Shown piece after piece: positions 9,544-32,285 of a stretch of DNA of 64,000 nt. The stretch spans positions 20,179-84,178 of the forward strand of contig VGMN01000007.1 of assembly GCA_016866355.1 (NCBI GenBank), in the 5' to 3' direction. The notes below the pieces were generated by a model. It was not told the origin of the DNA. It searched no databases and saw only the letters and a list, made by a program, of their open reading frames with translations. Position 1 is the stretch's first letter; every line of letters starts with the position of its first letter. The position numbers were made by a program, and so were the translations under genes. The DNA is from Bacteroidota bacterium. Lineage in GTDB: Bacteria; Bacteroidota; Bacteroidia; Chitinophagales; Chitinophagaceae.

Positions 9544-9562
9544 AGCCAATAAACAATTGTAT

Positions 9563-11398
9563 ATGTGTGGAATTGTTGGCTATACCGGTTATCGTGACGC
9601 GTTTCCAGTTGTCATTAAAGGATTAAAAAGACTTGAATACCGAGGATATGATAGTGCAGGAATTGCCTTGCACAATAAGGGGCTACATGTTTATAAAAAG
9701 ATGGGGAAAGTAGCAGACCTGGAGGAGCATGTAGTAGGAAAAGACATTGCAGGTAAAACTGGCATCGGTCACACACGTTGGGCTACACATGGAGAACCAA
9801 GCGACAAAAATGCGCATCCACATCGTTCAGCAAGTGGAAAATTGGCTATGATTCACAACGGAATTATTGAAAACTATAGTCAATTAAAACAAGAACTACT
9901 TCAAAAAGGATACCACTTCAACAGCGATACTGACACTGAAGTATTACTCAATTTTATAGATGAAATAAAAGAAAATAATCACTGTTCGTTAGAGGAGGCA
10001 GTTCGTATTGCATTAAAACGTGTAACTGGCGCCTATGTGATTCTACTGATCGAACAAGACGCCCCCGATACAATTCTAGCAGCTCGAAAAGGGAGCCCGC
10101 TGGTAATAGGTGTAGGAAAAGGAGAGCACTTTTTAGGTTCAGACGCTTCTCCTATGCTTGAATACACTAAAGAGGTAGTTTATGTAAACGACTATGAGCT
10201 AGCCATTATTAGTCCAGATGAACTTATCTTAAAAAACTTGGGTAACGAAATAGTAACCCCCTATGTACAAAAGCTAGATATTGAATTAGCTGCTATTGAA
10301 AAGGAAGGTTTTGATCATTTCATGCTAAAGGAGATTTTTGAACAACCGCAGACAATTTATGATTGTTTGCGTGGCCGCTTAGATGCACAAAAAAATAAAA
10401 TTACACTTAGTGGCATTGAGCAATATGCCAAAGAGATCTGCTATGCAAATCGAATCATCATGGTTGCATGTGGTACCAGTTGGCATGCCGGTTTGACAGC
10501 AGAATACTTTTTTGAAGAGTGTTGCCGCATTAATGTAGAAGTTGAATATGCATCAGAATTTCGTTATAGAAACCCCGTCATCACTCCAGGTGATGTTATT
10601 ATTGCTATTTCACAAAGTGGTGAGACTGCTGATACGTTAGTGGCCATAGAAAACGCTAAGTCAAAGGGTGCAATTATTCTTGGAGTAGTAAACGTAGTAG
10701 GATCCTCGATTGCACGCATCAGTCATGCGGGAGCGTATACACATGCAGGTCCTGAAATTGGAGTCGCTTCTACCAAAGCCTTTACTGCACAATTAGCGGT
10801 GCTAAGTATGATTGCCCTAAAAATTGCGCAACTAAAAGGAACCATGCCTACTGAAAAAATCAATTACTTGTTGAATGAACTGGAAGAGATCCCTGGAAAA
10901 GTACAGCAACTACTAAATGACACCACTGCCATTCAATCCATAGCAAAGAAGTATGCTGCAGCCCGAGACTTCTTATATCTTGGCAGAGGCTTTAACTTTC
11001 CGGTAGCACTTGAAGGCGCACTCAAGTTAAAGGAGATATCCTATATCCATGCAGAGGGCTATCCAGCAGCTGAAATGAAACATGGTCCCATAGCCTTAGT
11101 AGATGACCAGCTTCCAGTGGTGTTTGTAGCCACCAGGGATGGTTATCATGAAAAGGTAATTAGTAATATGCAAGAAATTAAAGCAAGGAAAGGAAAAGTT
11201 ATTGCAGTAATCACTGAAGGAGATGAAATGGCTACATCCCTAAGTGAGTCCGTTATGACAGTGCCGGCTTGTGATGAAATGCTCGCTCCTTTATTGACGG
11301 TGGTTCCCTTACAACTACTAGCTTATTATATAGGGATAGAAAGAGGATGCGATGTAGATAAACCTCGTAACCTGGCTAAGTCTGTAACGGTGGAGTAA
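9563..11398 (+). CDS. glmS: Glutamine--fructose-6-phosphate transaminase
   Basis: N-terminal MCGIVG, RLEYRGYDSAG, GHTRWATHG, SQSGETADT and C-terminal PRNLAKSVTVE. Confidence 0.98.
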   Translation: MCGIVGYTGYRDAFPVVIKGLKRLEYRGYDSAGIALHNKGLHVYKKMGKVADLEEHVVGKDIAGKTGIGHTRWATHGEPSDKNAHPHRSASGKLAMIHNGIIENYSQLKQELLQKGYHFNSDTDTEVLLNFIDEIKENNHCSLEEAVRIALKRVTGAYVILLIEQDAPDTILAARKGSPLVIGVGKGEHFLGSDASPMLEYTKEVVYVNDYELAIISPDELILKNLGNEIVTPYVQKLDIELAAIEKEGFDHFMLKEIFEQPQTIYDCLRGRLDAQKNKITLSGIEQYAKEICYANRIIMVACGTSWHAGLTAEYFFEECCRINVEVEYASEFRYRNPVITPGDVIIAISQSGETADTLVAIENAKSKGAIILGVVNVVGSSIARISHAGAYTHAGPEIGVASTKAFTAQLAVLSMIALKIAQLKGTMPTEKINYLLNELEEIPGKVQQLLNDTTAIQSIAKKYAAARDFLYLGRGFNFPVALEGALKLKEISYIHAEGYPAAEMKHGPIALVDDQLPVVFVATRDGYHEKVISNMQEIKARKGKVIAVITEGDEMATSLSESVMTVPACDEMLAPLLTVVPLQLLAYYIGIERGCDVDKPRNLAKSVTVE

Positions 11399-11415
11399 AT
11401 TTTTAAATCACCCCT

Positions 11416-13629
11416 ATGAATAAAATTAATAAACAACCTCTTTCCTCACTGGGGTTTGGATTTATTGACCCCGCTTTTATTCCCAAAGGGAAGGATGAAT
11501 ATTATTTACGAAACAGACAACATCGATCTAAGACACCCTACCGCAAATTGACGGCAAAAGAAATACAGACCCTTCTTCGGAATGATAATAGCGCTGATGA
11601 TTGGAACAATATTGAGGTGGCTCCAACATTTGATCCTAAACTTGTTAAACGTTGCAGTTTTTTTGGAAAAATCAGAATCGGTAAGCTAGAGGCACTATTT
11701 CATGAGTTCAACAACTTAAGAATGCCTGTGGGTATTTATAACAGTACCATTATCAGTTGTGATATCGGAGACAATGTTGTGATTGACCAGATTAGTTTCA
11801 TGAGTCACATTATTACAGGAAATGACGTACTGCTTGTCAACATTCAGGAACTATCCAGTACTGATCATGCAAAGTTTGGAAATGGAGTGGTAAAAATTGG
11901 CGAAGACCCCGCCGTCAGAATATGGATGGAGTTAGCAAATGAAAACGGGGGAAGAAAAGTACTTCCCTTTAATGGTATGCTTCCAGGAGATGCGTGGATT
12001 TGGTCAAAATATAGAGATAATCCCAAGCTCCTAGAAAAACTTCAAGAGTTTACTGATGATAAATTTGATCGAAAAAGAGGTTACTATGGAAAAATAGGCG
12101 ACCGTACAGTTATTAAAAACTGTGAAATTATTAAAGATGCTTGGATAGGAACCGATGCCTACATCAAGGGTGCCAACAAACTAAAGAATATCACGATTCT
12201 TTCCTCACCTGAGGCAACTACACAAATTGGAGAAGGTTGTGAATTAGTCAATGGTATTGTGGGTTATGGATGTCGCATTTTTTATGGCGTGAAAGCAGTA
12301 CGATTTGTTATGGGCACAAACTCCCAATTGAAGTATGGAGCCCGTTTGATTAATTCCTACTTAGGAGACAATTCTACTATCTCCTGTTGCGAGGTATTGA
12401 ACTCCCTGCTTTTCCCTGGACATGAGCAACATCACAATAACTCATTTCTTTGCGCAGCAGTAATTCAAGGTCAAAGCAACTTGGCTGCTGGAGCAACTAT
12501 AGGCTCTAATCACAATTCACGTGCAGCCGATGGGGAATTAGTTGCTGCACGCGGTTTTTGGCCGGGTTTGTGTGTTAGCTTAAAACATAACTCCTATTTT
12601 GCCTCTTTTAGCATACTTGCTAAGGGAGATTTTCAAGCTGAAATCAATAACAGACTTCCCTTCTCATTGATTAGTAACAGCACAGATAATAATGAGCTGG
12701 TAATAATGCCAGGGTATTGGTTTGAGTATAACTTATATGCGCTGGCACGTAACAGTGAAAAATATGAAGCACGCGATGGAAGAACTGATAAAAGAATCTA
12801 CTTGGAGTTTGATTACCTCGCACCAGATACAATTAATGAAATGATTGAAGCCCTCTCCATTTTAGCATCCAGCACGGGTGAGGCTTATATAAAAAAGAAT
12901 CGAAAAAAAAGTAACCAATCTACAGAAGCGATTGGTAATACCTTGTTACAAAATGATCCTGAAACAGTAGCGCAACTGACTATTTTGCTGAAAGAAGCTG
13001 AGAATAGCCGTAGATCTGTTCGATTGACCAAAGTGAATGCAGCTTATCGTAATTACCATCGGTTAATTCGTTACTACTGCATCAAAGAGTTATTTCGCTT
13101 AACTCCTAATGGGACTGATTGGATGCAATACCTAAAAATTCGTTGTCAAAAGATAAAACAGCAACCCGCAGCTTGGATTAATGTAGGCGGTCAACTACTA
13201 CGTGAACAAGCCCTTGATCAGTTAAAGAAAAATATCTGTGCAGGTAAAATTAATAGCTGGGATCAAATTCATGATTGGTATCATCAGCAAAGTGAGCGAT
13301 ACCCTATAGATAAAATGGAACATGCGTTAGCAGTGTTACTGCTAATTACAAACACCAGTGCCAACCGGTTGAGTCGGAACAAGATGCTCTCCCTATTAGC
13401 AGAAGCAGAGGAAACACAGGCGTGGACTATGCAGCAAATAAAAAAATCCAGGGCTAAAGATTATCAAAACCCATTTCGAAAAATGTTATACAACAATGAG
13501 CGTGAAATGGAACAGGTGATGGGCAAACTAGAAGACAATCCATTCATCAATAGTCTGGAAATCAAACAAAATCTTTTCTACCAACAAGCTGCACAGCTAC
13601 GGCTTACCTTGACAAAAAAGAAAAAGTAA
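11416..13629 (+). CDS. DUF4954-family protein with left-handed beta-helix (hexapeptide) repeats
   Basis: Opens with YRKLTAKEIQTLLRNDNSADDW. Hexapeptide runs (IGDRTVIKNCEIIKDAWIGTDAYIKG) and GSNHNSR. Starts 17 nt after glmS. Confidence 0.8.
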   Translation: MNKINKQPLSSLGFGFIDPAFIPKGKDEYYLRNRQHRSKTPYRKLTAKEIQTLLRNDNSADDWNNIEVAPTFDPKLVKRCSFFGKIRIGKLEALFHEFNNLRMPVGIYNSTIISCDIGDNVVIDQISFMSHIITGNDVLLVNIQELSSTDHAKFGNGVVKIGEDPAVRIWMELANENGGRKVLPFNGMLPGDAWIWSKYRDNPKLLEKLQEFTDDKFDRKRGYYGKIGDRTVIKNCEIIKDAWIGTDAYIKGANKLKNITILSSPEATTQIGEGCELVNGIVGYGCRIFYGVKAVRFVMGTNSQLKYGARLINSYLGDNSTISCCEVLNSLLFPGHEQHHNNSFLCAAVIQGQSNLAAGATIGSNHNSRAADGELVAARGFWPGLCVSLKHNSYFASFSILAKGDFQAEINNRLPFSLISNSTDNNELVIMPGYWFEYNLYALARNSEKYEARDGRTDKRIYLEFDYLAPDTINEMIEALSILASSTGEAYIKKNRKKSNQSTEAIGNTLLQNDPETVAQLTILLKEAENSRRSVRLTKVNAAYRNYHRLIRYYCIKELFRLTPNGTDWMQYLKIRCQKIKQQPAAWINVGGQLLREQALDQLKKNICAGKINSWDQIHDWYHQQSERYPIDKMEHALAVLLLITNTSANRLSRNKMLSLLAEAEETQAWTMQQIKKSRAKDYQNPFRKMLYNNEREMEQVMGKLEDNPFINSLEIKQNLFYQQAAQLRLTLTKKKK

Positions 13630-14643
13630 CTAACGCTGCTTTATTAATAAGGCACTAATAACAGGGCGTTCCACTCCATTGTCTCCGGGTCTAACAGTAA
13701 GTCTATTTCCGATTACCATAGCCGTAGAGCCTCCCCCATCAAGATTAATAGCATCTGTACATCCAATAGATTTTAATAAGTTGGCAAGGTCGGCTAAATT
13801 AATTCCCGGATAACCAGCAGTAGCATTATCCCCCTCTACAGCTAGTAATACTAACCGACCAGCAGCAGTATATCCGATTGCCGTACGAGGTCTGGAGGTT
13901 GTATTATTGATATTTATTAACTCCTCCACATCGCTGATCCTGACGGAACCAGCTTGCAATAAAAGCGGAGAACCACCAATAGCAGCAACAACATTCCATA
14001 CAGATCCCCCAGCTGGAAACGTTTCGGTAGGTTGTGGCTGCGGTGCTGTTCCCTCGGCGTTAGGGCTTGGTGAAGTGTATTGATATATTAAATCATTACC
14101 AGCTCCAACAGAATAGATCCATGCAGTGGTGGGAGCCCCTGTTGGCGTAATACCCAATGCAGCACGAGTAGGATAATAAGAGGTAGATGAGCCATTATAG
14201 GTCCTTGTAACGGCTTTAATATTGGGCGAACTAACAACGTTATTGTATTTCACCAAACTATATGATTGCGTGCCTCCATAATAGCCTCCATTAATGGCTA
14301 CATAAACTAATCCAGTTTCTGCAGCAGCAAATTGACTGGGAGTCCGTAAAGTGGAAGACTGTACAGGCTTGAACTCAAAACGCCCTGAGGAGTAATCAAG
14401 TGCCACACAAAATGCTTTAACAGTTCGTCCGTTAAAAATTGTATCAAAAGTAAATGCTTGGATACCCGATGGAAAATTCAAGGAGAGTGTTGCGGAATAT
14501 TTCCACCCAGGAGCTAACGTGATCAATGGCGTAATAGGTGTAGGAGTTGGCGTGGGTGTACTACCTCCACCAGATTTTGATTTAGAGCAAGCCCCACTCG
14601 CTAGCAAAATTAAGAAGGGAACAAAAAGCAGAATTTTTTTCAT
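13630..14643 (-). CDS. Phosphodiester glycosidase (NAGPA/DUF2233-like) lipoprotein
   Basis: Lipobox SGAC and a PT-rich linker. AINGGYY, RPRTAIG, LLAVEG and AINLDGGGSTAM are NAGPA-family motifs. Confidence 0.88.
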   Translation of the reverse strand: MKKILLFVPFLILLASGACSKSKSGGGSTPTPTPTPITPLITLAPGWKYSATLSLNFPSGIQAFTFDTIFNGRTVKAFCVALDYSSGRFEFKPVQSSTLRTPSQFAAAETGLVYVAINGGYYGGTQSYSLVKYNNVVSSPNIKAVTRTYNGSSTSYYPTRAALGITPTGAPTTAWIYSVGAGNDLIYQYTSPSPNAEGTAPQPQPTETFPAGGSVWNVVAAIGGSPLLLQAGSVRISDVEELININNTTSRPRTAIGYTAAGRLVLLAVEGDNATAGYPGINLADLANLLKSIGCTDAINLDGGGSTAMVIGNRLTVRPGDNGVERPVISALLIKQR

Positions 14644-14648
14644 AGAGT

Positions 14649-15752
14649 TCAATCTTTATACAAAGAAAAAGGGATTCGATTTAGGGTTTCAAAATAAAAA
14701 AATACTTCGCCATTAAAACCAAGCGAGCGATTCAGCTGCACCATCTTCTGCATAAGTTGCAGGTCTGCCTGATAGCCATCACCTAATGAAGTAAGTATTC
14801 CTGGAACAATTTTGTGAAGAAGTGTGTCTGGGATCTGACTTCGCAATTGCTTTATTATGGTACTATATGCTTCAAAATTATATCGATAAAGTTGTGGAAT
14901 AACAAGATCCGCATGATTCCCCATGAGCCATTTAGGCCAATCTTGCAAATACTCCTCAAGACTCCAAGGATAGATACTAGGTGCCCATGAAACTATGCAT
15001 GCAGGCTTTACCTTTTTAACAGATTGATAAATTTTTGCAGCGTAGTTCGATAGCTGGTCAGCCTTCCATTGTATAAAAGTCTTTTCTTTAGGATTAGCTG
15101 GCACGGCAGACCCATCAAATGCTTGCTGATATAACTTACGCGTGTAAGTATCATAACCGCCCTCAGCTGGCATGGCAGGTAAACGGTCATCACCTTGAAT
15201 GCCATCAATATCATAGTTTCTAACTACTTCTAGAATTAATGATGCTAAAAATTGCTGCGGACCAGGGTGCAAAGCATTCCACCAATAAAATCCATTTTTT
15301 TGCAATAACTCTCCTTTTACATTTCTACCACACCAATCAGGATAGCGCTGTAGCCAAACAGAATTAGTATCTCTATAGGCGTATGAGAATCCAAACTCAA
15401 ACCATGCATGAATTTTCAAACCAGCTTGATGCCCCTCCTCAATAATCTCACGCAAGGGATCTCTACCTTTAAAAGCTGGATGTTGACTGATGCCTATGTA
15501 CTGCTCCTGAATAGTACTTGGGAAAAGAGAGTAACCCCCATTCCATACCACTACAAATAAAGTGTTCAGCCCCGCTTGTTTTGCTTGCGAAACGGTTTGT
15601 TTTATATTCTCTCTAGAGTTTAAAGCTTTACTAGCCACATTGGTGACCCAAGTGCCTTTTATAGTTTCAGCGGTGGGTGTTTGCGCTATCGATAAAACAG
15701 CAGTACAACTAACAATAATAAAAAGAAATATACCTGGTAATAAAAGTTTCAA
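14649..15752 (-). CDS. GHL10 / UPF0748 (YddW/DigH-like) glycoside hydrolase, Sec-secreted
   Basis: IKGTWV, DPLREIIEEGHQAGLKIHAWFEFG, YDIDGIQGDD, YLQDWPKW and PQLYR. Signal peptide ends in A|Q. Confidence 0.85.
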   Translation of the reverse strand: MKLLLPGIFLFIIVSCTAVLSIAQTPTAETIKGTWVTNVASKALNSRENIKQTVSQAKQAGLNTLFVVVWNGGYSLFPSTIQEQYIGISQHPAFKGRDPLREIIEEGHQAGLKIHAWFEFGFSYAYRDTNSVWLQRYPDWCGRNVKGELLQKNGFYWWNALHPGPQQFLASLILEVVRNYDIDGIQGDDRLPAMPAEGGYDTYTRKLYQQAFDGSAVPANPKEKTFIQWKADQLSNYAAKIYQSVKKVKPACIVSWAPSIYPWSLEEYLQDWPKWLMGNHADLVIPQLYRYNFEAYSTIIKQLRSQIPDTLLHKIVPGILTSLGDGYQADLQLMQKMVQLNRSLGFNGEVFFYFETLNRIPFSLYKD

Positions 15753-15764
15753 ATCAACTAAGTT

Positions 15765-16703
15765 TTAGGTAGTGATTGTTTTTCGATATTCTTGGTATCG
15801 ATTGTATAAATGGTGTGCCGCTCCATACATGGACTGGGGGCTCATAAAATGAGAAAACTCGAATGTGATTGCTTTATCATATCCTGCGCGAGCCGCTGCG
15901 GCTAACTTTAGTTTTAATTTTTCAAACTTAATAGGCAAAAACTTGATAGGCATATCCCGATCAAAAGATTCGGCATTTGTCCAACATTGCATTCCATATC
16001 GATTGGCTAGCTTTTTATTAATAGTAAAAAAATCTTCCAATTCGTGGTAGCCGATATGTCCATCCTGAAACGCTACTGCATCTACAGCACCTTGTATGCC
16101 TTGGAAAATTTCATTCCACTCTTGTTCATGCGCTTGTAAGGATACTGCATCAGCCTTTGATAATTGCCCAGAAGCTGCCAATACGGCTTTTTTACCGTCA
16201 ATCCAGGGCGAAATAAAAGTGGGAAGCCCCCCGCTTACATCCTTACACAATTTTCCCAGTGTATGAAAAGCCTCTATGGCACCCTTGGTTTTACGACTAA
16301 TCTCCATACTGAGATACCAGCCCTGAAATGAGGCATGATGTCCATACCGAGACCACACCTCATCAATAACAAAACGATTAAGTTCTATCTCCTCTTTCAT
16401 GTCACCCGTATCCCAATAATGGCCGCTATCATAAAGCCCAAAATAAAATTTCATATGGTACCGATCAGCAAGCGTACAAAATAGTTCCACCAAATCTATG
16501 GGAGGTTCATAGCAACCACGGTGCTTCAATAAATAAAGCGAAGGATAAGTGAGAAAAGAACGGTAGCCGCTTCGGATGAGAATGACAGTGTCAATACCTG
16601 CATTTTTCATATGCACAAAATCCCTTTCCCATTCAAGCGGACCCCAGTTCTGGTGAGGTATATCATGACTAATCTCGTCCAAAAATGTACCGGTAATTAA
16701 CAT
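15765..16703 (-). CDS. DUF4434-domain protein (putative TIM-barrel glycoside hydrolase), no signal peptide
   Basis: MLITGTFLDEISHDIPHQNW, GIDTVIL, GWYLSME and WTNAESFDRD. Confidence 0.78.
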   Translation of the reverse strand: MLITGTFLDEISHDIPHQNWGPLEWERDFVHMKNAGIDTVILIRSGYRSFLTYPSLYLLKHRGCYEPPIDLVELFCTLADRYHMKFYFGLYDSGHYWDTGDMKEEIELNRFVIDEVWSRYGHHASFQGWYLSMEISRKTKGAIEAFHTLGKLCKDVSGGLPTFISPWIDGKKAVLAASGQLSKADAVSLQAHEQEWNEIFQGIQGAVDAVAFQDGHIGYHELEDFFTINKKLANRYGMQCWTNAESFDRDMPIKFLPIKFEKLKLKLAAAARAGYDKAITFEFSHFMSPQSMYGAAHHLYNRYQEYRKTITT

Positions 16704-16717
16704 GCAAACAATTTAAA

Positions 16718-17992
16718 TTAAGTTCCTGGTTCTATTTCTTTTTCTTTGAGCGGCACCAACCAACTTACCAAAAAGGCAGGTAGCGTTGACACCAATACCC
16801 AAATAAAAAATTGAGCATAGCCTAAATAATCACTGATAGCACCACTGATCATTGAAGCAATAGTATAACCAAAATAAGTAATAGCACTTCCAAATGCATA
16901 ATGCGCCATTTGATATTTACCTGGTGCAATTTGCTGCATAATAAAGATGATAATTCCAATAAACCCAAATCCGTACCCAAAATGCTCAATGGCAATGGCC
17001 GCTCCAATCACCCATAGGGAAGTTGCTTGTGTAATGGCTAAGTAGGCATAAGCTGCAAAGGGAAGATTAAAAAATGCACAAAGCAATAATAAAGTGCCTC
17101 GATTTAACCCCTTGTTGGAAACAAAATAGCCTGCTGCCAATGATCCCAGTACAAAAGCAACCGTGCCATATATGCCCGTGAGCAATCCTACAGTAGACTC
17201 GGTTAAACCTAACCCCCCTTCCGCCATTGATGCCTTCAAAAATAATGGCATGATTTTAATTCCTTGCCCCTCCGCAAATCGGTATAGCACAATAAATAGT
17301 ATTCCTGCTCCAATATGTTTTTTTTGGAAAAAACTAATCATCACATCTTTCAACGTGTACCAAACTTGAGCAGCAGTTTGCATAGATTGTTGTACTGCAT
17401 TATCAGGCAACACCCGACGGTTATAAATTCCCAAAAACAACAGCACCAATGCATAAATTGCCAACACAATAGCCCAAGCGTCTCGATCACCCAACAGCGG
17501 TATCAATATACCTGCCAGAAATACCATACCTCCATTTGAGAAAAGCTTAGCTACATTATAAAAAGTTCCTTGCCACCCTACATAACGTGCTTGTTGGCTA
17601 GCAGATAATTCACTGAGATAAATTCCATCAGCAGCCATATCCTGTGTAGCTCCAAAAAAAGCAATGAGAAAAAAGAGAGTAACCGATAATGGGAAAAAAA
17701 AGTTGGTGTATAAAGAAAGTACAGCTAATGCAAAAAGTACGCCGCAGGCCAATTGAGATAACTGGATATAAAACTTCTTTGTTTTATAAAGTTCCATGAA
17801 TGGACCCCACAATGGCTTAAAACTCCAAGGCAATACAATAAGTCCTGTCCAAAAAGCAATTTGAGCATCTGAATATCCCAGGCTTTTATAAAGTAGGGAT
17901 GCAATGGTTCCACCCAGCACAAGGTTTGGCAGACCCATCGCAAACCAGGTAGTGGGAATCCAGGATAGTGGGTGACGTGAATGTGTTGGCAA
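16718..17992 (-). CDS. AmpG-like MFS transporter
   Basis: About 12 TM segments. PWSFKPLWGP and ATQDMAADG resemble AmpG-family motifs. TTG start. Confidence 0.85.
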   Translation of the reverse strand: MPTHSRHPLSWIPTTWFAMGLPNLVLGGTIASLLYKSLGYSDAQIAFWTGLIVLPWSFKPLWGPFMELYKTKKFYIQLSQLACGVLFALAVLSLYTNFFFPLSVTLFFLIAFFGATQDMAADGIYLSELSASQQARYVGWQGTFYNVAKLFSNGGMVFLAGILIPLLGDRDAWAIVLAIYALVLLFLGIYNRRVLPDNAVQQSMQTAAQVWYTLKDVMISFFQKKHIGAGILFIVLYRFAEGQGIKIMPLFLKASMAEGGLGLTESTVGLLTGIYGTVAFVLGSLAAGYFVSNKGLNRGTLLLLCAFFNLPFAAYAYLAITQATSLWVIGAAIAIEHFGYGFGFIGIIIFIMQQIAPGKYQMAHYAFGSAITYFGYTIASMISGAISDYLGYAQFFIWVLVSTLPAFLVSWLVPLKEKEIEPGT

Positions 17993-18061
17993 GCAGCTTG
18001 ATTTAATAAATTATTTTAAAAACGTTTTGTGAATTTATAATATTATTTAAATAGATTCGCG

Positions 18062-19225
18062 ATGAACCTTTCATTTATTTACATGCGATTGGCCGCCCTT
18101 CTACTTCTGTCCATTTTCCTTACCGCCCAAGCTTGCAAAAAAAAATCCAGTACTGGCGGAGGCACACCTACACCCCCCACTCCAGTCTGGGATCCCAATG
18201 CCATGCGGGGGGCATGGATAACTACTACAGCTAGCACAGCCCTTGATAGCCGAGATAATATTCGTCAAATGGTAAGCACTTGCAAAGCCGCAGGCATTAA
18301 CCATTTATTTGTGGTAGTTTATAATAACGCCAGGACAACCTACCCCAGCGCTACCATGAGTGCCTTAATTGGCAAGCCCATTCTAGAACGGTTTGCGGGG
18401 AGAGACCCCCTTCAAGAGTGTATTGAGGAGGGTCATGCTGTTGGCTTAAAAGTACACGCTTGGTTTGAATATGGCTTCTCTTCTTCTTACAGTGCAGGAG
18501 GTGGAGCTATTGTCACGGCAAAGCCCCACTGGGCTGCACGTGATCTTTCAGGAAATCTTGTTGTGAAAAATGGATTTGACTGGCTTAATGGAATTCATCC
18601 CGAAGTCCAACAATTTATGGTTGATTTATTTAAAGAAGTAGTTACTAATTATGCTATTGATGGGGTGCAAGGAGATGATCGCTTGCCAGCTCTTCCCAAC
18701 ACTGGAGGCTACGACCCTTACACTATAAACCTTTACAAGAACGAAAATAATGGGGCTAGCCCTCCAACTACTGCAACTGATACCAGTTGGTTAAGATGGC
18801 GCGCAAGGAAGCTAAACAACTTTGTAAAAAGACTACGATCTGAGGTTAAAGGCATTAAACCAACTGTTTTGTTTACTATATCGCCAAGTCCTCACCCATT
18901 TGGATATAATGAGTATCTACAAGATTGGCCCACCTGGGTAGATAGCAGTTGGGTAGACGCCGTGCTTCCTCAATGTTACAGATACGATATCAACGGATAT
19001 GCTGCTGTTGTCCAACAGCAAAAGGCAGCGCACCGCAACCCAGCCGTACCACTTTACCCAGGTGTGTTACTACGATCAGGAACGTATACCGCAAGTGCTG
19101 CAATGCTGAGCCAAATGATACAGACCAACCGCAACAATGGGTTGAAAGGAGAATCTTTCTTTTTTTATGAAGGAATTAAGGACGTTAGTTCATGGTTTGC
19201 AGGACAATACCCTTTTATAAAATAG
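18062..19225 (+). CDS. GHL10 / UPF0748 glycoside hydrolase lipoprotein
   Basis: Lipobox AQAC and PT linker. MRGAWI, DPLQECIEEGH, HAWFEYG, GVQGDDRLP, YLQDWP and PQCYRY. Confidence 0.85.
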   Translation: MNLSFIYMRLAALLLLSIFLTAQACKKKSSTGGGTPTPPTPVWDPNAMRGAWITTTASTALDSRDNIRQMVSTCKAAGINHLFVVVYNNARTTYPSATMSALIGKPILERFAGRDPLQECIEEGHAVGLKVHAWFEYGFSSSYSAGGGAIVTAKPHWAARDLSGNLVVKNGFDWLNGIHPEVQQFMVDLFKEVVTNYAIDGVQGDDRLPALPNTGGYDPYTINLYKNENNGASPPTTATDTSWLRWRARKLNNFVKRLRSEVKGIKPTVLFTISPSPHPFGYNEYLQDWPTWVDSSWVDAVLPQCYRYDINGYAAVVQQQKAAHRNPAVPLYPGVLLRSGTYTASAAMLSQMIQTNRNNGLKGESFFFYEGIKDVSSWFAGQYPFIK

Positions 19226-19231
19226 TTGCAA

Positions 19232-21391
19232 ATGATTTCTAGATATGCATTAGCCATTCTTTTACTATTTACCATACATAATGGATTCGCTCAAACTTAT
19301 ACCAAATGGGTAGATCCTTTTTTAGGAACAGGGGGACATGGCCATGTGTATCCTGGCGCTACCGTACCATTTGGCATGGTACAAGTAAGCCCAGATAATG
19401 GTGTGGAGGGCTGGGATTGGTGTAGCGGTTATCATTACAGCAGTACTACCATTGCGGGTTTTAGTCATACACATTTAAGTGGGACCGGTATTGGTGATTG
19501 GTGTGACATCTCTGTACTTCCCTTGACAGACACGACGCAAGTTGGTTCTAAAAAAATATTTATTCCCTTTCAACACCAAAATGAAAAGGCAGAACCTGGT
19601 TATTACAGTGTTATACTAGATAACAAAATAAAAGTAGAACTAACAGCCGCTGACAGAACTGGGTACCATCGCTACACATTTCCCGCAAATAAGGGTTGGG
19701 TTCGTTTTGACATGGGCTTTGCCATCAACTGGGACCAATCAACTGCAGGCCAACTTCAATTAATTGATTCATTTACGCTCGTGGGATATCGCTTTAGCAC
19801 TGGTTGGGCAAAAGGGCAAAAGGTTTTTTTTGCAGCGCGTTTCAATACACCCGTTCAGCAATTAGTTTTTATTGATGATTCCACGCATTCACGTTATCGT
19901 GCGGTGGGTAAACAAGTAAAAGCCTTGCTTGAATTCAACACTTCACAGCCCTTAGAATTTAGTGTGGCACTTAGCAGCGTTAGTACAGAGAAGGCGCAAA
20001 TGGAACTCTACAGCCAATTAAATAATCAATTTGATCAAGTAGCACAAAAAGCAACAAACCGCTGGGAAAGAGAATTAGAAAAAATAAAAATTGATACCAC
20101 TAACCGCGATCTAGCCATTCGTTTTTATACAGCGCTATACCGCACTTCATTAGCCCCGGTTGTTCAAAGTGATGCAGATGGACAATACCAAACACACGAC
20201 AACAAGATTCGTAGATTCACCAACGGTGTAAATAAGTATACCATTTTTTCGCAATGGGATGTATTTCGTGCTTCAAATCCACTTTTTACACTGCTTCAGC
20301 CAGAACGTTATAGGGACATGCTTAACAGCATGCTTGCTTTTTATGATGACAATGGGCTCCTACCCGTTTGGGATATTAGCACTTGGGAAGCCAATACAAT
20401 GACTGGGTATCACAGTGTGCCCATTCTGGCAGACGCCATTCTCAAAGAGATTAAAGGATTTGATATTTATAGAGCGTATGAAGCAATGAAAAAAAGTGCC
20501 AATCAATCCCAACGCGGAACACCGGCCTATCTGCAATATGGCTATGTACCCCATGACAAACATGGATGGAGTGTTACCACCACGTTGGAATATGCATTTG
20601 ATGATTGGTGTATTGCGCAAGTTGCAAAAAAGCTGGGTCGACATGCTGACTTCCAACTATACAGCCAACGCGCCAACTCATATAAAGCACTTTTTGACTC
20701 CACTACAGGATTTTTTAGAGCCCGCTTGAGTAATGGACAATTTAAAGAACCTTTTGATCCCTTATTAAGTGAGCACGGCTTTGAAGGACAATATATAGAG
20801 GGAACAGCGTGGCAGCATAGTTTTTTTGTTCCGCATGATGTAGAGGGCTTTGCTCGTTTACACGGAGGAAAAGAAAAGCTACTACAAAAACTAGACTCAC
20901 TTTTTACAGCCCCATCAGAGTTACATGGTCAGGATGTGTCGATAGATGTAACGGGATTAATTGGTCAATATGCACATGGAAATGAGCCAAGTCACCATAT
21001 CATTTATTTATACACGGCCCTGGGCGCTCCAGAAAAAGCAGCCCATTGGGTTAGGGTTGTAGCGGATAGCATGTACAAAAATGGGCCCGATGGTCTAACC
21101 GGCAATGATGACTGTGGACAGATGAGTGCTTGGTATATATGGTCTTCACTGGGAATGTATCCACTTAATCCCGCATCAGGCCAATACGTATTTGGATTGC
21201 CCCTTATTAAGGAAGCAGTGATTGAGTTGACACAAAATAAAAAAGTAAAAATTCAGGTATTAACTATACCTGGACAAGGAAAAAAAGGAATTGCAAAAGT
21301 GAAATGGAATAAAAAAGAAATTCCACTGTATGCCATTTCACATCAACAATTACAAGAGGGAGGCACATTGACTTATTATGTGTATGAGTAA
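19232..21391 (+). CDS. GH92 alpha-mannosidase family protein
   Basis: GTGGHGHVYPGATVPFGMVQ, FSHTHLSGTG, EGTAWQH (acid), HGNEPSHH and GNDDCGQMSAW (base). Confidence 0.93.
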   Translation: MISRYALAILLLFTIHNGFAQTYTKWVDPFLGTGGHGHVYPGATVPFGMVQVSPDNGVEGWDWCSGYHYSSTTIAGFSHTHLSGTGIGDWCDISVLPLTDTTQVGSKKIFIPFQHQNEKAEPGYYSVILDNKIKVELTAADRTGYHRYTFPANKGWVRFDMGFAINWDQSTAGQLQLIDSFTLVGYRFSTGWAKGQKVFFAARFNTPVQQLVFIDDSTHSRYRAVGKQVKALLEFNTSQPLEFSVALSSVSTEKAQMELYSQLNNQFDQVAQKATNRWERELEKIKIDTTNRDLAIRFYTALYRTSLAPVVQSDADGQYQTHDNKIRRFTNGVNKYTIFSQWDVFRASNPLFTLLQPERYRDMLNSMLAFYDDNGLLPVWDISTWEANTMTGYHSVPILADAILKEIKGFDIYRAYEAMKKSANQSQRGTPAYLQYGYVPHDKHGWSVTTTLEYAFDDWCIAQVAKKLGRHADFQLYSQRANSYKALFDSTTGFFRARLSNGQFKEPFDPLLSEHGFEGQYIEGTAWQHSFFVPHDVEGFARLHGGKEKLLQKLDSLFTAPSELHGQDVSIDVTGLIGQYAHGNEPSHHIIYLYTALGAPEKAAHWVRVVADSMYKNGPDGLTGNDDCGQMSAWYIWSSLGMYPLNPASGQYVFGLPLIKEAVIELTQNKKVKIQVLTIPGQGKKGIAKVKWNKKEIPLYAISHQQLQEGGTLTYYVYE

Positions 21392-23873
21392 AATAAATAA
21401 CCAAGTAATAAACAAGCATGGTGTTGCACTCCTTGTATTATTCCTCACACCCCTTATCAGCTTTGCACAATTTCAAGGAAAACTCATACCTAAGAAAGGC
21501 TTATTTGTTAACCAAGGTTCACTGCAATGGGCCATGGGCTCTGAAATCAATTTTCTTGATGCTGACAGACAACATCATGCATATTATTTTACATGGTGGG
21601 AACAAGATGCCGATACTAGCAATCCTGCTCAAGATATTTTATTTATTGGCAGCGCCAATACAGCAGTACAAGGCACATTTACGTTAGCAAAAAGTGAAAC
21701 AAAGTTAAAAACAACACTTGCCTGTACGTGGAATAATAGCACAGCAGGCGTTTGTGATTTATTGTATACCCGTCTTTGGTATCCCTTTTTTACGCAGGCT
21801 ACCTGGAGTAACAAAGAGGGTAAATTACTTAAGCATATCGAAAAAGAATTTGAGGACACTGTCTTAGTTGCCCAAACTCCCTTTGGTGTTTATCGATTCA
21901 GCTCCTCTCATCCTTTCTTGATACAATTAGACACGGCTCTTCATCCGCAAGAAACAGCCTTTACTGTTCGTTCACAGTTTATAAAAATCTTTAATCGCTC
22001 AATTAACTTAAGTGAAAAAGAAAATTTAGTACGAACATTTAGTATTGAGCTAATGGAAGCCCCCTTCAATCATAGAAAGAACCCATACCAGATTAAAGAT
22101 TCATTAGTAACTACAGATAAGTTATGGGAACCGCCAAGCGGAAAGCTCTTATTGCTTCCTAAACCAGCGGAGTGGGTTGCTAAAAGCGGTTTTACCACCA
22201 TCCCCACTTCTCAAAAACATTTAACTGATAGTAACCTTCGCTATTTTAATGAAGTGGCTAGTCGTTACTGGAAAACCAATAAAAATCTGCAACCTGCCTG
22301 GAGATTAATAAAAGATTCACTACTTCCTGTTGAGGGATACACCCTGTTCATTGAAGACAGTATATTCATTAGCTATGCCACTCCCAGTGGACTACAACAT
22401 GCCATAGAAACACTTGGTCAGTTAATAGAACAAAAAGAGCAGCAGCTAGTTTTGAAAAATGCAGTCATAAAAGACCAACCACAGAATAGTTGGCGTGGCA
22501 TACACATGTTCACCGGTCCACAGAGCTTAGCATTACATCAAAAAATGTATCAGCAGATTTTACAGCCGTTAAAAATCAACAAGGTGGTGTTACAATGCGA
22601 GCAAGCAACCTGGAATTCCTTTCCTTCGATACATAATGCCATCAGTATAAATAGGGCTGATCTAGCAGCAGAGTTTGCCTATTTACGCAAACACCATATC
22701 GAACCCATTCCTTTAATACAAAGTTTAGGACATATGGAATGGTTTTTCAAACCAATTGAAAACCGCTTCTTAGCCATAAATCCATCGTATCCCTATACAC
22801 TAAATGTTACGCAGCGTAAAGGGAAAAAGGCAATGTTAGTTCTTTGGAAGGAGGCTATTGAACTTTTACAGCCTCAAACAATACATGTGGGGTTTGATGA
22901 AATTGGAATGATTGGTTTTCATTGGCCAAGAGAAAAAGAATTACAATTATTTAAGCAACAACTTAACCGCTTAGACCGATTTAGCAAGAAAAGAAAACTA
23001 GGTTTAATGATTTGGGGAGATATGGGACTTGCTCCCGGAGAGGCCCCAGACGCGTGTAACGGAGTGAACAAAGAAAGAGCCGCTGCTATCAGAGCCAGCA
23101 TTCCAAAAAATACATGGATTGTTGACTGGCACTACCTGGGCAACCCTGATCCCAATGCGTATTTACCTTCTATTCAACTTTGGAAAAGAGAAGGATTTCG
23201 CCCCCTTGCCTCTCCTTGGTTTATTCCTAATAATATTAGAGGCTTTGCTATGGCTGCTAATCAAGAAAATGCTGGAATACTTCAAACAACCTGGGCAGAT
23301 TTTGAAAGCAGCGAGGTTAATATGCTGAAAAACATTGAGCAATTTGGTGCGTATGTACTAGCCTTGGATTACGCTTGGAGCGGTAGAAAAGAATTACCCA
23401 ATGAACTCCCTTACCAAGGTGTCACCGAATGGACACAACGATTCTACCGACAACCATTTCCTATTGCTACTAAAGTGGGAAAAAAATGGAATGGTTCAAT
23501 TTCAATGGAAAACCTAACTGATTTAGGGGCACAAGCGCTACCCAATCAACTTGTATTTACAATGGAGAATAATCAACAGGTAGAAGGAATTAAATTAAAA
23601 GGGAGCACGGCACTGATTCTGCCTGAATCAACGCCAGTTGCAATAGTAACGGGATGGAGAGATGGGCTAGTTGAATTTTCAATCCCACTGCTTTACGGAA
23701 GAGATATTCGTGCAACGCAGGACAAACGCCCCATTTACGTAGCTATAAAAGAAAAAGGAGAAAAAGAGTGGTATCATTTCCTTACAGAATCCAAAAAAGT
23801 GGATAGAATTGAAATAAAACAGATCCACCCAGGTGCTGGAATACAATTAACAGAAGTTGGATTCATACAATAA
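21384..23873 (+). CDS. GH20-like beta-N-acetylhexosaminidase with extra N- and C-terminal domains
   Basis: GH20b-like segment EGYTL...GLQHAIETLGQL, then DQPQNSWRGIH, PLIQSLGH and catalytic IHVGFDE. Confidence 0.8.
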   Translation: MSKINNQVINKHGVALLVLFLTPLISFAQFQGKLIPKKGLFVNQGSLQWAMGSEINFLDADRQHHAYYFTWWEQDADTSNPAQDILFIGSANTAVQGTFTLAKSETKLKTTLACTWNNSTAGVCDLLYTRLWYPFFTQATWSNKEGKLLKHIEKEFEDTVLVAQTPFGVYRFSSSHPFLIQLDTALHPQETAFTVRSQFIKIFNRSINLSEKENLVRTFSIELMEAPFNHRKNPYQIKDSLVTTDKLWEPPSGKLLLLPKPAEWVAKSGFTTIPTSQKHLTDSNLRYFNEVASRYWKTNKNLQPAWRLIKDSLLPVEGYTLFIEDSIFISYATPSGLQHAIETLGQLIEQKEQQLVLKNAVIKDQPQNSWRGIHMFTGPQSLALHQKMYQQILQPLKINKVVLQCEQATWNSFPSIHNAISINRADLAAEFAYLRKHHIEPIPLIQSLGHMEWFFKPIENRFLAINPSYPYTLNVTQRKGKKAMLVLWKEAIELLQPQTIHVGFDEIGMIGFHWPREKELQLFKQQLNRLDRFSKKRKLGLMIWGDMGLAPGEAPDACNGVNKERAAAIRASIPKNTWIVDWHYLGNPDPNAYLPSIQLWKREGFRPLASPWFIPNNIRGFAMAANQENAGILQTTWADFESSEVNMLKNIEQFGAYVLALDYAWSGRKELPNELPYQGVTEWTQRFYRQPFPIATKVGKKWNGSISMENLTDLGAQALPNQLVFTMENNQQVEGIKLKGSTALILPESTPVAIVTGWRDGLVEFSIPLLYGRDIRATQDKRPIYVAIKEKGEKEWYHFLTESKKVDRIEIKQIHPGAGIQLTEVGFIQ

Positions 23874-23874
23874 G

Positions 23875-25290
23875 CTAGCTTCGCCAGATCCATTTCCTTT
23901 GATTGAAATACAATGTTATTGTACTTACCATAGCAGTAAAAATAATACCCTTTAGTAAACCTTGCCAAGGTGCATGCGCCCAAGTACCCCATTGATCAAG
24001 CACATTACTAAGCGCAAATAATGGAAGTAGCAATAGTGAGCCTGCTACGTAGGCTACTAATGGATTTTTGCCAAGCCCTGCTAAGATTTTCCAACATACT
24101 TTAGTCCAGTTGCAAGCAACTATATCTCTGATAACAACAAGTCCAAAAAAACTGTATGCGCTGGTAATAAAATAATAACTAAATGTAGAGGGATCTTTTT
24201 TTATTCCACCCTCATAGGGCTCCAACACTAATCCAATCAACAAGAAAAAAAGACCATACCTGGCCAATACGTAAGACAAAGAGGTATCCTGCAACAAATA
24301 CTTCCGGCATATCACTAGAAGAAGTAGTGCAAGCCACAATATCCAACAAAGCATTTCTTGATTTCGCATAAAAAGCAATGCAAGCAGTAGCGCCAGCAAA
24401 AACAAAATAAGTATTGACCAGGCTCCCAATAGAAACGTCATTCCCCCTTTCGATTCATTCTTATTTTTTAAAAATAGTTCGCCAGCCCAACTACCTGGTA
24501 CGATAATAAATAAGTACTTTAAAAAGTAAAACTTATAAGCCCAATCAAAAGTAAGACCCCCAATGGAGCGAAAATTGAAAAAAGATTTTACGACATGATC
24601 TCCTGTTTCTCTAGCACTTAAAATTACAGCAGCAACTACTACAAGCACAGCAATACGCCATGAAGGATGATCAGCAGTAAACAAATAAATAAGGGTGCCA
24701 AAAAAAGCCATGTTCGCTAATACAACAATGATAATATCGCTTCGATAAAAATCAAAGCCACCCCCATCATGGAAAGGCAGTCGATACAGCAGGATTCCTG
24801 CCATCAGGTAAGACATTGGCTTTATCCACTTCAACCAATTCCAAACTCCTGTTTTTTTAAAATCAAATAGCTGGCCAAATAATAATACAAAAGCCAAAAT
24901 GGAAAGTACTTGATCGGTATTACCAGGATTCTTACTAAGCACCCACGCTTTCATGTGTTGTGAGAAAAGTGCAAAAAATAGTAGCTGAAAAAATCTTCTG
25001 CCTGCTACGCCAAGTAAGTTCACCCGAGTTGTTCCCCTTTCCAATTGCGTGTGTAAGGAAAGAGGTATTGCAGCACCCATACAGAATAAGAAAAAAGGAA
25101 ACACAAGATCAACCCATGTAATCCCTGCTCGGGTCGGTTCAAATTGGTGAAGAGGTGGCGGCACTTGCGCATGATACATCCAAGCAGGCAAGAGTCCTCC
25201 AAATGCAATACTTCCAGATAGTACCATTCCAAAAATAGCAACACCTCTTAATACATCTAGCTCTATCACTCGGCCAGTGCGGTTTGTCAT
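23875..25290 (-). CDS. DUF5009 / HGSNAT-NagX-like polytopic membrane acetyltransferase
   Basis: ELDVLRGVAIFGMVL, GITWVDLVFPFFLFCMG and IKKDPST. Start reassigned to the ATG at 25290 because the longer ORF start lies across a terminator. Confidence 0.82.
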   Translation of the reverse strand: MTNRTGRVIELDVLRGVAIFGMVLSGSIAFGGLLPAWMYHAQVPPPLHQFEPTRAGITWVDLVFPFFLFCMGAAIPLSLHTQLERGTTRVNLLGVAGRRFFQLLFFALFSQHMKAWVLSKNPGNTDQVLSILAFVLLFGQLFDFKKTGVWNWLKWIKPMSYLMAGILLYRLPFHDGGGFDFYRSDIIIVVLANMAFFGTLIYLFTADHPSWRIAVLVVVAAVILSARETGDHVVKSFFNFRSIGGLTFDWAYKFYFLKYLFIIVPGSWAGELFLKNKNESKGGMTFLLGAWSILILFLLALLLALLFMRNQEMLCWILWLALLLLVICRKYLLQDTSLSYVLARYGLFFLLIGLVLEPYEGGIKKDPSTFSYYFITSAYSFFGLVVIRDIVACNWTKVCWKILAGLGKNPLVAYVAGSLLLLPLFALSNVLDQWGTWAHAPWQGLLKGIIFTAMVSTITLYFNQRKWIWRS

Positions 25291-25315
25291 ATAGAAGCTA
25301 TTTAAATTCAAAGTA

Positions 25316-25347
25316 ATAAAAAAGGGGCACTTTAACGAGTGCCCCTT
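25316..25347 (-). terminator. Intrinsic terminator after susD
   Basis: Minus-strand 10-bp stem AAGGGGCACT-cgttaa-AGTGCCCCTT followed by a T run, 19 nt after the susD stop. Confidence 0.85.
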
Positions 25348-25365
25348 CCTTTTAAAAACAATCAA

Positions 25366-27147
25366 TTATTGCCACCCAGGATTTTGTGTAATATTTTTAT
25401 TTTTATCAATTTCTCCCTGTGGAATTGGCCATAGTTTGTACTTAGGATTTGTATTCACACGTGTTTGTGCGCGTGTTTTTAATCGCTTAGTAATGCTGGC
25501 AGCAGAATACACAGGTAACCCATTTGCATCAAATGAAGGTCGCTCTGCCGGATCAGCAGGATTAAGTGAAACACCCACTACAGGCATAGAATTTGCAACT
25601 GCATAGAGATCCCAACGTCTGAGATCAATCAAACGTAATCCCTCACCAGCAAACTCAACAGCTCTTTCACGACGAACTAAATTACGCAACTCCGCTGCAG
25701 AACCTCCTGTTACAGCAGGCTGCCCCGCACGGCTACGTACCGCATTAATAGCAGAAAGCACGGTCGCATCTGTTTCGCCCAACTCAATCTTTGCTTCGGC
25801 ATAGGTTAACAGAATCTCCGCGTAACGCATGTTGATGTATCCTGTTTTAGTTGTCCAGGAATACTGTGTTGAGTCTACATACTTTCTCCATACATAACCT
25901 ACCCCTCCACTAGAACCCGTTGCGCCTGCAAACCAAGGAGAGACTAAGTAGCCAATCCAATCAATATTATTAGCTACAGCATCAAACCGGTTAGTGTTCC
26001 AATTAAACTTGAAACGAGTGTTAGAATAAACATTAAATATTGTGCGTTCTTTAGGTTGAACATACGGCAAAGATGGAGCTAATGCAGTGTTGTGTACCAT
26101 TGTGTCTCCCTGCATGTACACAGTCCAAGCAAGACGTTTATCTCGATTTTGAGAGGGATTCGCCTGATTGTAAACAGCTGACTGATCAATTCGCTTACCA
26201 TCCCTCCCTTCATATGAATCCACTAACTGTTGGCTTGGGAAATGACTACTCTGTGAAGTACCAACCTGGCGGGGTATAGTTAAAACAATTCCCCAATTTT
26301 GGGGATCTAGTATGTCTGTAGGATACGTCTGTACATACATTAACTCACGGTTAACATTCGAACGCTGTCCTGCTAACATAAATAAATCAGTGTAACGTGG
26401 ATTCAACCCGTAAGCATTAGAGCTGATAATTGTTTGTGTAGCGGCTTTTGCCGTTGCATAATCTTTTATCAACATGGCTAAACGGGCTTTTAGTCCTAAA
26501 GCCACCCCCTTGTTAACACGACCATATTCAATAACAGGCGCTGCGCTGGATTGATCAAAGCCAGTAGCCGCTTCATCTAAATCACGATACAAATCAGCCA
26601 CAACCGTTGCCACTTTTGTGCGGCCGATTGTTTCATATTCACTGGGATCTAATGGCTTTCTAAAATAGACGGGATCACCAAACCAGCCCATGATATAATA
26701 ATATCCCCACGCACGTAACACTAAAGCTTCAGCGCGTAGTCTTGCATAACGAGCAGCCGACACATTAACCTGCCCCTTAGTCATTCCATCAAGCATAATA
26801 TTAGCGCGCGTAACGAGCTTGTACGCTTGATTCCAGGAAGTCCCGGGCAAAGAGTTACCAATTAAGAACGGACCTCCATCTCCCATAGCAACTTGGTCCT
26901 CGGCATTACCCGTGCGTTTGATTGCCAAATCAGTGGAGGACTCAATTGCAAAAAGCAAGGGAGTATTGTTAGGGAACTGCCAGAAAGCTGCCGCATACAC
27001 ACCATTAAGTGCCAGGTTCATTTCGTCCTCCGTTTGCATAAATGTGGCCGAGGAGGCGCTATCCAATGGTTGGCGGTCCAAGAACTTGTTACAGCCAGAT
27101 GCAACCAGCACTGCCGTAAACAACAGTATTGAACTTATCTTTTTCAT
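25366..27147 (-). CDS. susD: SusD/RagB nutrient-binding lipoprotein
   Basis: Lipobox SGC-NKFLDRQP. EALVLRAWGY, RYAEILLTYAEA, ERAVEFAGEGLRLIDLRRW and C-terminal LWPIPQGEI...QNPGW. Confidence 0.95.
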   Translation of the reverse strand: MKKISSILLFTAVLVASGCNKFLDRQPLDSASSATFMQTEDEMNLALNGVYAAAFWQFPNNTPLLFAIESSTDLAIKRTGNAEDQVAMGDGGPFLIGNSLPGTSWNQAYKLVTRANIMLDGMTKGQVNVSAARYARLRAEALVLRAWGYYYIMGWFGDPVYFRKPLDPSEYETIGRTKVATVVADLYRDLDEAATGFDQSSAAPVIEYGRVNKGVALGLKARLAMLIKDYATAKAATQTIISSNAYGLNPRYTDLFMLAGQRSNVNRELMYVQTYPTDILDPQNWGIVLTIPRQVGTSQSSHFPSQQLVDSYEGRDGKRIDQSAVYNQANPSQNRDKRLAWTVYMQGDTMVHNTALAPSLPYVQPKERTIFNVYSNTRFKFNWNTNRFDAVANNIDWIGYLVSPWFAGATGSSGGVGYVWRKYVDSTQYSWTTKTGYINMRYAEILLTYAEAKIELGETDATVLSAINAVRSRAGQPAVTGGSAAELRNLVRRERAVEFAGEGLRLIDLRRWDLYAVANSMPVVGVSLNPADPAERPSFDANGLPVYSAASITKRLKTRAQTRVNTNPKYKLWPIPQGEIDKNKNITQNPGWQ

Positions 27148-32272: not shown

Positions 32273-32285
32273 GACCACAGCGCTA

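Follow-up and report, generated by a model that had tools for sequence, protein, structure and literature searches.

Which sugar would be released by the DUF4434 protein that a member of the Chitinophagaceae (Bacteroidota) encodes directly behind a putative importer? The gene lies in a stretch of 64,000 nucleotides (the window) of contig VGMN01000007.1 (assembly GCA_016866355.1, positions 20,179–84,178), from a genome of 1.76 Mb that is 96% complete. A first-pass annotation, made from the sequence alone, had proposed a cytoplasmic glycosidase that delivers N-acetylmannosamine (ManNAc) to a 2-epimerase (AGE). We consider it probable that DUF4434 is a retaining, clan GH-A-like glycosidase with two catalytic glutamates that cleaves beta-linked ManNAc, i.e. 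a beta-N-acetylmannosaminidase, because three unrelated ManNAc epimerases (AGE, NanE and WecB) accompany the family and a two-Glu barrel is chemically expected for beta-ManNAc. In the window, the gene is the second of a four-gene operon on the reverse strand (MFS, DUF4434, GHL10 and an NAGPA-like lipoprotein), itself part of a 21-kb polysaccharide utilisation locus (PUL) that also encodes DUF5009, SusD, SusC, a PF12831 flavoprotein, AGE and a divergent ROK repressor. The features on which the argument turns are:

16718–17992, reverse: AmpG-like permease of the major facilitator superfamily (MFS), 424 aa, first gene of the operon (MFS_1; TIGR00901, 109 bits, cut-off 350)
15765–16703, reverse: DUF4434 (PF14488) TIM-barrel protein, 312 aa, without signal peptide, proposed beta-ManNAc glycosidase (Pfam E 2.9e-80)
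16304–16302, reverse: codon of Glu134 (GWYLSME), proposed acid/base, after strand 4 (126–130); invariant (strand from model DSSP; weak HMM alignment)
15971–15969, reverse: codon of Glu245 (WTNAES), proposed nucleophile by inferred role, after strand 7 (239–243); invariant, including YbcH Glu245 (strand from model DSSP)
14649–15752, reverse: GHL10 hydrolase with signal peptide (PF02638, E 3e-56; hydropathy)
13630–14652, reverse: NAGPA-like phosphodiester glycosidase lipoprotein, last gene of the operon (PF09992, E 1e-28; PDB NAGPA matches)
18002–18050, unstranded: AT-rich inverted repeat in the intergenic region of the divergent MFS and GHL10 genes; conserved, putative operator for ROK (23.3 bits)
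32286–33491, reverse: AGE, N-acylglucosamine (ManNAc/GlcNAc) 2-epimerase, cytoplasmic (NF052547, 650 bits, cut-off 600)
33534–33582, unstranded: second copy of the inverted repeat, between AGE and ROK (21.7 bits)
33644–34891, forward: ROK-family repressor with HTH (PF00480 and HTH_24)

The window protein matched PF14488 with 270 bits against a cut-off of 30, aligning model positions 1–282 of 283 with residues 3–292. Its nearest homologues are found in Chitinophagaceae, the closest (95% identity) in a Bacteroidota metagenome bin, and an Atlas search returned DUF4434 clusters only. It shares 72% identity with BT_0435 of Bacteroides thetaiotaomicron (PDB 4H41; rmsd 1.4, Z 47.7). Two AlphaFold models (AF2; pLDDT 94 and 95) form an eight-stranded barrel, so the predicted TIM-barrel fold stands. 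After 4H41, the fold neighbours were Cwp19, the GH164 beta-mannosidase, GH5 mannanases and GH42 (Z 19–21), and matches to clan GH-A (GH164, GH5, GH42, GH1 and GH2) spanned Z 17–21.

The two glutamates noted in the first-pass annotation do lie at strand ends in the model, after strands 4 and 7. Both are invariant in a 50-sequence alignment of three subfamilies (15–78% identity), in which the only other invariant residues are Asp14, Trp25, Gly128 and Trp129, and Gln213-Asp214-Gly215 is nearly so. In profile alignments, Glu134 fell weakly (E 0.01–0.2) on the W..NE acid/base motif of GH2, GH42 and GH158. No alignment in the PDB profile searches reached strand 7 of any characterised GH, and Glu245 is therefore assigned as the putative nucleophile by position. 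A (beta/alpha)8 barrel in the model, with conserved Glu after strands 4 and 7, makes membership of clan GH-A likely. By the criteria applied, DUF4434 is not a member of GH29 or GH164: it shares 13% identity with the latter, is a single domain of 312 aa compared with a multi-domain protein of ~650 aa, and gave no GH164 profile match up to E 10. DUF4434 would be an unassigned hydrolase family with a real and well-supported functional prediction.

Gene context points to ManNAc as the likely product. Among 301 Bacteroidota genomes, 13 carried a DUF4434 orthologue and 35 carried AGE; all 13 DUF4434 carriers encoded AGE, nine of them within 20 kb. In a set of 80 Bacteroidota orthologue loci, AGE occurred within 10 kb of DUF4434 in 34, often 3–60 nt downstream. 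No BNR sialidase, NanA or NanE was found in the host genome, and neither of its two DapA-family proteins scored as NanA; given the completeness of this genome, its AGE needs another source of ManNAc. Several relatives do carry sialidase-like BNR genes, which in two genomes are the neighbours of AGE in place of DUF4434; the lack of sialic-acid genes is thus a feature of the host genome and the loci and does not extend to every carrier.

A ManNAc product predicts that NanE and a kinase take over where a lineage has no AGE, and such loci were found. In Actinomycetota, Bacillota, Thermotogota and one alphaproteobacterium, NanE and a ROK kinase replace AGE. We sampled this branch with 80 metagenomic loci, its core clade comprising 30 non-redundant clusters. 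NanE was encoded in 39 of the 80 loci and in 24 of the 30 core-clade clusters, most misses being short contigs (raw counts), and NanA in none of the 80. The locus of Nonomuraea purpurea consists of GntR, an ABC importer, DUF4434, NanE and ROK, plus another DUF4434 of greater length that carries fn3 and F5/8 domains; a Firmicute locus and a Thermotogae locus both contain NanE and ROK. In a Devosiaceae genome, an orthologue 75% identical to the window protein is located behind an ABC importer and a ROK kinase, with NanE nearby, and thus the AGE and NanE contexts are linked through nearly the same enzyme. The proposal that ManNAc is the likely product is thereby backed by contexts independent of AGE, namely NanE/ROK and the WecB/NfrB context described below.

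Several further observations concern DUF4434 loci of other lineages. The Devosiaceae locus (L048:1854–10939) combines a Bacteroidota-type DUF4434 with DUF4127, NanE, GntR, an ABC importer and ROK; it is an apparent horizontal transfer and links the family to DUF4127. In two independent assemblies (L107, 3752–5365; L108, 5158–6771), the NanE and ROK genes behind DUF4434 are both frameshifted, which suggests a decaying operon. AAC(3)-like genes (PF02522) recur beside DUF4434 in the NanE clade (L112:8876–9703, L098:4263–5768 and 12 loci of L113–L192), where they perhaps replace DUF5009 as amino-sugar N-acetyltransferase. In a genome of 30% GC (L101:4215–11585), a short DUF4434 protein has very large ones beside it (957 aa, and 2624 aa with Ig-like domains), and these large proteins are possibly secreted, endo-acting forms.

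The first-pass annotation correctly placed a cytoplasmic AGE in the locus, one that passes the NF052547 membership threshold, but the gene is 15.6 kb away from the MFS/DUF4434 operon. The two are connected by the inverted repeat, which is bipartite, AT-rich and conserved in Chitinophagaceae. A model trained on the repeat from 11 other genomes found exactly two strong sites in the entire host genome, one before MFS (the top site genome-wide) and one before AGE, whereas shuffled controls reached at most 15.9 bits. Because the same repeat precedes both, the MFS and AGE operons would form one regulon despite the gap, with the repeat as the putative operator of the ROK repressor. A scan for sigma-70 promoters and terminators yielded nothing above chance. 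The displacement of AGE by NanE and a kinase and the shared operator are new here.

The third epimerase, WecB, comes into view through YbcH of Escherichia coli, which also belongs to PF14488 (profile alignment to the window family, probability 96.6). YbcH keeps both Glu and the QDG motif, and the two Glu are invariant in 39 homologous sequences (E. coli ybcH, L082:3092–3982; also L194). The gene is the third of nfrBA-ybcH, a system for which synthesis of a ManNAc polymer from UDP-ManNAc has been proposed, and both Nfr papers describe YbcH as auxiliary, never as a hydrolase (PMC8669469, PMC8669472). On a Rhodanobacter contig, the gene order is wecB-nfrB-nfrA-ybcH. A periplasmic hydrolase that acts on the system's own polymer is a usual component of synthase-type export systems, and beta links would be expected from an inverting GT2 acting on UDP-alpha-ManNAc. 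Rather than being a scaffold, YbcH probably hydrolyses the N4-receptor polymer in the periplasm.

Chemistry is consistent with the enzyme type. Beta-ManNAc is a 1,2-cis linkage that the acetamido-assisted oxazoline route of GH18, GH20 and GH84 cannot cleave, and therefore an enzymatic nucleophile, as in beta-mannosidases, is expected. In the proposed pathway, SusC/D and the exported proteins (the two GHL10, NAGPA, the GH20-like protein, GH92 and DUF5009) would degrade a HexNAc glycan of bacterial origin, and the MFS would import the resulting short oligosaccharide, which ends in ManNAc; DUF4434 would then release ManNAc in the cytoplasm, and AGE would convert it to GlcNAc for the NagB route. 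The tools returned the anatomy of the locus, the fold, the conserved Glu pair, the linkage to ManNAc epimerases and the common operator; that the protein is catalytic, that it acts on a beta linkage, what its substrate is and in which order the steps occur are inferences. The remaining genes of the locus are:

18062–19225, forward: second GHL10, lipoprotein (PF02638, E 4e-60)
19226–21391, forward: GH92 family protein with signal peptide (PF07971 and PF17678)
21378–23873, forward: divergent GH20-like protein with a GFDEIG acid pair (PF02838; 9FYL, E 7e-10)
23875–25365, reverse: DUF5009, HGSNAT-like membrane N-acetyltransferase (PF16401; human HGSNAT, E 1e-5 over 55 aa)
25366–27147, reverse: SusD
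27165–30278, reverse: SusC TonB-dependent transporter
30308–32278, reverse: exported PF12831 FAD oxidoreductase of unexplained role (present in 21 of 80 related loci)

Beta-ManNAc is also a constituent of secondary wall polymers and of several capsules. As the most plausible substrate we tentatively suggest, short of an outright preference, ManNAc-beta1,4-GlcNAc, the linker of teichoic acids or secondary wall polymers, which NAGPA would free from its phosphodiester. The ManNAc-beta1,4-GlcNAc-1-phosphate wall linker would fit NAGPA, the GHL10 proteins as relatives of wall hydrolases, and the amidases that lie by DUF4434 in three distant genomes. In this linker, beta-ManNAc joins wall teichoic acid to peptidoglycan (PMC7086022). 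More generally, NAGPA adjoins DUF4434 in distant lineages too, in one locus together with an amidase, GH3 and NamZ. The three genomes (L089–L091) share an AmpG-like MFS, NAGPA, DUF4434 and AGE among amidases and GH38, and L089 additionally has the GH3 and NamZ.

The cytoplasmic placement made in the first-pass annotation holds for the window protein, not for the family. With an open frame of only 315 codons and strand 1 beginning at residue 3, there is no room for a signal peptide, and the N-terminal hydropathy maximum is 1.14 versus 2.6–3.3 for NAGPA, both GHL10, GH92 and the GH20-like protein, the contrast with the other hydrolases that had been pointed out. A Tat-type (twin-arginine) signal was detected in 22 of the 80 Bacteroidota orthologues, all 22 beside a sugar-porter MFS, and BT_0435, by its numbering, has an N-terminal extension as well. 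The 58 orthologues without a Tat signal are accompanied by an AmpG-like MFS (30), an SSF transporter (21) or neither, and never by a porter. This distribution fits a division in which monosaccharides are taken up after cleavage in the periplasm, whereas oligosaccharides are taken up for cleavage in the cytoplasm. The cytoplasmic location of DUF4434 is thus lineage-specific rather than a family property. The putative importer is separated from DUF4434 by the 14 nt originally reported (16704–16717). Its likeness to AmpG was upheld as a resemblance, and the sequence scores suggest nothing closer: it fell below the cut-offs of both TIGR00901 and PRK11902 (63 against 656 bits) and by these criteria is not a member of AmpG, it had no PDB sequence match, and AmpG-like MFS and SSF alternate several times on the orthologue tree. 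It is nevertheless the sole AmpG-like match in the host genome.

Several points weigh against DUF4434 being a beta-N-acetylmannosaminidase. An Asn directly before the acid/base Glu is typical of clan GH-A, although not universal; here it is not conserved, position 133 being Met, His, Gln or Tyr. The Z-scores of Cwp19/GHL10, GH164, GH5 and GH42 are tied within ~2 units, and the fold consequently does not point to mannose. YbcH is only ~17–21% identical to the window family, and the NGR polymer is structurally undefined. Related genomes are not independent samples, and the counts of carriers and AGE (13 of 13 against 35 of 301 overall) ignore kinship. Likewise, the Tat/sugar-porter group is a single clade (SH-aLRT 98, quick tree), and we rejected the pairing of Tat signal and porter as independent proof, as one clade amounts to one event. 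NAGPA and GHL10 are missing from most Gram-positive and Thermotogae loci, and the linker hypothesis therefore does not apply across the family. The literature search, whose coverage left out most subscription journals, found no activity data for any family member; it named DUF4434 only in an unrelated context, did not mention N-acetylmannosaminidase or mannosaminidase, and returned nothing on ManNAc together with PUL and AGE. Finally, neighbours resembling N-acetyltransferases (DUF5009, AAC(3)-like) and GDSL esterases suggest a modified sugar, and the gene context fits ManNAc as the glycone (−1) or as the released aglycone (+1) alike.

These last two points lead to the alternative that survives best, which we regard as unlikely but serious: the pathway would still yield ManNAc, with something other than plain ManNAc at −1, either a modified manno-hexosamine (free-amine ManN, O-acetyl, pyruvyl or uronic) or the X of a cleaved X-ManNAc, ManNAc being the aglycone. 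Recurrent neighbours in the 80 Bacteroidota loci were a GDSL esterase (44), DUF5009 (40), GHL10 (33), GH92 (23), NAGPA (22) and the flavoprotein (21). The first two of these, the AAC(3)-like acetyltransferases in 12 NanE-clade loci and the unexplained flavoprotein all favour a modified sugar, and either subsite is compatible with the gene context. However, most of the modifying enzymes are exported and would do their work at an earlier step, the host genome contains no GDSL match, and YbcH, with the same core residues, would act on a polymer derived from UDP-ManNAc, which places ManNAc at −1 if this is a homopolymer.

It is improbable that DUF4434 is instead a cytoplasmic beta-N-acetylglucosaminidase, muramidase or beta-mannosidase acting on peptidoglycan or mannoside fragments delivered by a true AmpG-type permease, with the epimerases as bystanders of a general amino-sugar regulon. 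Release of GlcNAc or mannose needs neither AGE nor NanE, yet in every lineage one of them lies downstream of the gene, in many cases with an overlap, and the MFS, although the only AmpG-like match in the genome, scores below the AmpG cut-offs and is exchanged for SSF or ABC importers elsewhere. On the other side stand the wall hydrolase Cwp19, a GHL10 relative, as the top non-family fold match, the loci with amidase, GH3 and NamZ, and the ~10-fold upregulation of B. thetaiotaomicron BT0433–0438 on colonic mucin O-glycans (supplement of 10.64898/2026.03.26.714468).

That the protein binds sugar or acts as a scaffold, without catalysis, is very improbable; such a role was suggested for YbcH, which is dispensable for N4 infection and was named a putative scaffold (PMC8669469), but both Glu are invariant at catalytic positions over 15–78% identity, and the cytoplasmic form is encoded directly behind importers. 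Less credible still is an alpha-L-fucosidase, the activity given in the title of PDB entry 4H41 and in some JGI names. The weak GH29 profile matches (E ~0.004–0.005) span the first three strands only, and a GH29 neighbour was seen in one distant locus. The nucleophile of GH29 is an Asp after strand 4, where DUF4434 has the Glu of GWYLSME, and the partner genes handle ManNAc, not fucose. No GH29 chain was present among the best 50 fold matches listed, which does not count against a GH29-like fold. Least credible of all is a sialic-acid lyase or sialidase substituting for NanA and feeding ManNAc to NanE or AGE: DUF4434 does occupy the NanA slot of GntR-ABC-X-NanE-NanK operons, from which NanA is absent, but strand 6 ends in AFQDG with no conserved Lys near it for the Schiff base of NanA/DapA class I aldolases (nor is any Lys conserved across the subfamilies), some forms are Tat-exported and one paralogue, bearing fn3 and F5/8, is secreted, the YbcH context is unrelated to sialic acid, and B. 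thetaiotaomicron, which has BT0435 and AGE, is not known to catabolise sialic acid.

The GH20-like protein (831 aa) has no Pfam catalytic-domain match and a counterpart in only 5 of the 80 loci; its nearest structures, 9FYL being the closest, come from a study of disaccharide-releasing GH20s. The tail of the flavoprotein (30308–30844) had no Pfam SLH match up to E 0.5. At 9557–13629, glmS and then DUF4954, with a left-handed beta-helix signal, converge on the end of the operon, an adjacency to DUF4434 kept only in the closest relative. Three recurrent neighbour families (L079:13922–15112, L031:12043–13206 and L065:8783–9667; 9, 6 and 9 loci) had no Pfam or NCBIfam match. Elsewhere, the host genome encodes two NamZ, a GH3 and one amidase, and its contig C6 (~68.8–70.5 kb and 100.5–104.8 kb) carries a second NAGPA-like gene adjoining a ROK protein and a GH20 adjoining a long NagB.

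Taken in full, the proposal is that DUF4434 would be a new GH family of beta-N-acetylmannosaminidases defining a widespread, sialic-acid-independent scavenging of ManNAc from bacterial wall polymers (e.g. the ManNAc-beta1,4-GlcNAc-1-P linker), with YbcH as the missing periplasmic hydrolase of the N4 phage receptor system. In this breadth we put it forward with some reserve, the case for it being nearly balanced. If true, the enzyme would explain AGE and NanE genes that lack a sialic-acid supply, describe how bacteria recycle the walls of other bacteria, and serve as a tool in the analysis of ManNAc glycans, among them the N4 receptor polymer of E. coli, whose structure is undefined. A 1.8 Å structure of the 72%-identical orthologue exists, and the reading is therefore directly testable.

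Among the closest known systems is that of BT_0435, an orthologue whose structure is a structural-genomics entry titled 'putative alpha-L-fucosidase' and whose operon contains ROK, a sugar transporter and AGE (BT0433–0437). It differs by ~57 extra N-terminal residues (by its numbering) and a monosaccharide-type porter. BT0435 is called 'hypothetical' in a 2026 preprint, in which the neighbouring BT0438 cleaved only pNP-alpha-GlcNAc, and an inversion between the AGE genes BT0437 and BT0453 shuffles PUL8, the DUF4434 locus, and PUL9 (10.1101/2025.06.24.661248). YbcH of the NfrBA/NGR exopolysaccharide system shares the Pfam family, the Glu pair, the QDG motif and, through WecB, the link to ManNAc; unlike the window protein, to which its identity is as low as stated above, it is periplasmic and found in a biosynthetic/export context. 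The GH164 beta-mannosidase Bs164, GH5 beta-mannanases and mannosidases, and GH42 share the (beta/alpha)8 barrel (Z 19–20) with Glu after strands 4 and 7, whereas DUF4434 is 10–13% identical to them, consists of a single 312-aa domain, lacks the Asn before the acid/base Glu and occurs in an amino-sugar context. The nan operons (importer, NanA, NanK, NanE or AGE-type NanE) have the same downstream ManNAc enzymes and importer-regulator layout, but in DUF4434 loci there is no NanA and a glycosidase-like gene stands in its place, which implies a sialic-acid-independent source of ManNAc. In the Bacteroides mannan route, a symporter imports the disaccharide, an AGE-family epimerase acts on it first, and a cytoplasmic GH130 phosphorylase then cleaves it. 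Disaccharide import and cytoplasmic cleavage coupled to a 2-epimerase are features that the two systems would have in common, while in the window NCBIfam identifies a true AGE as the epimerase, and the enzyme proposed to cleave has the look of a hydrolase.

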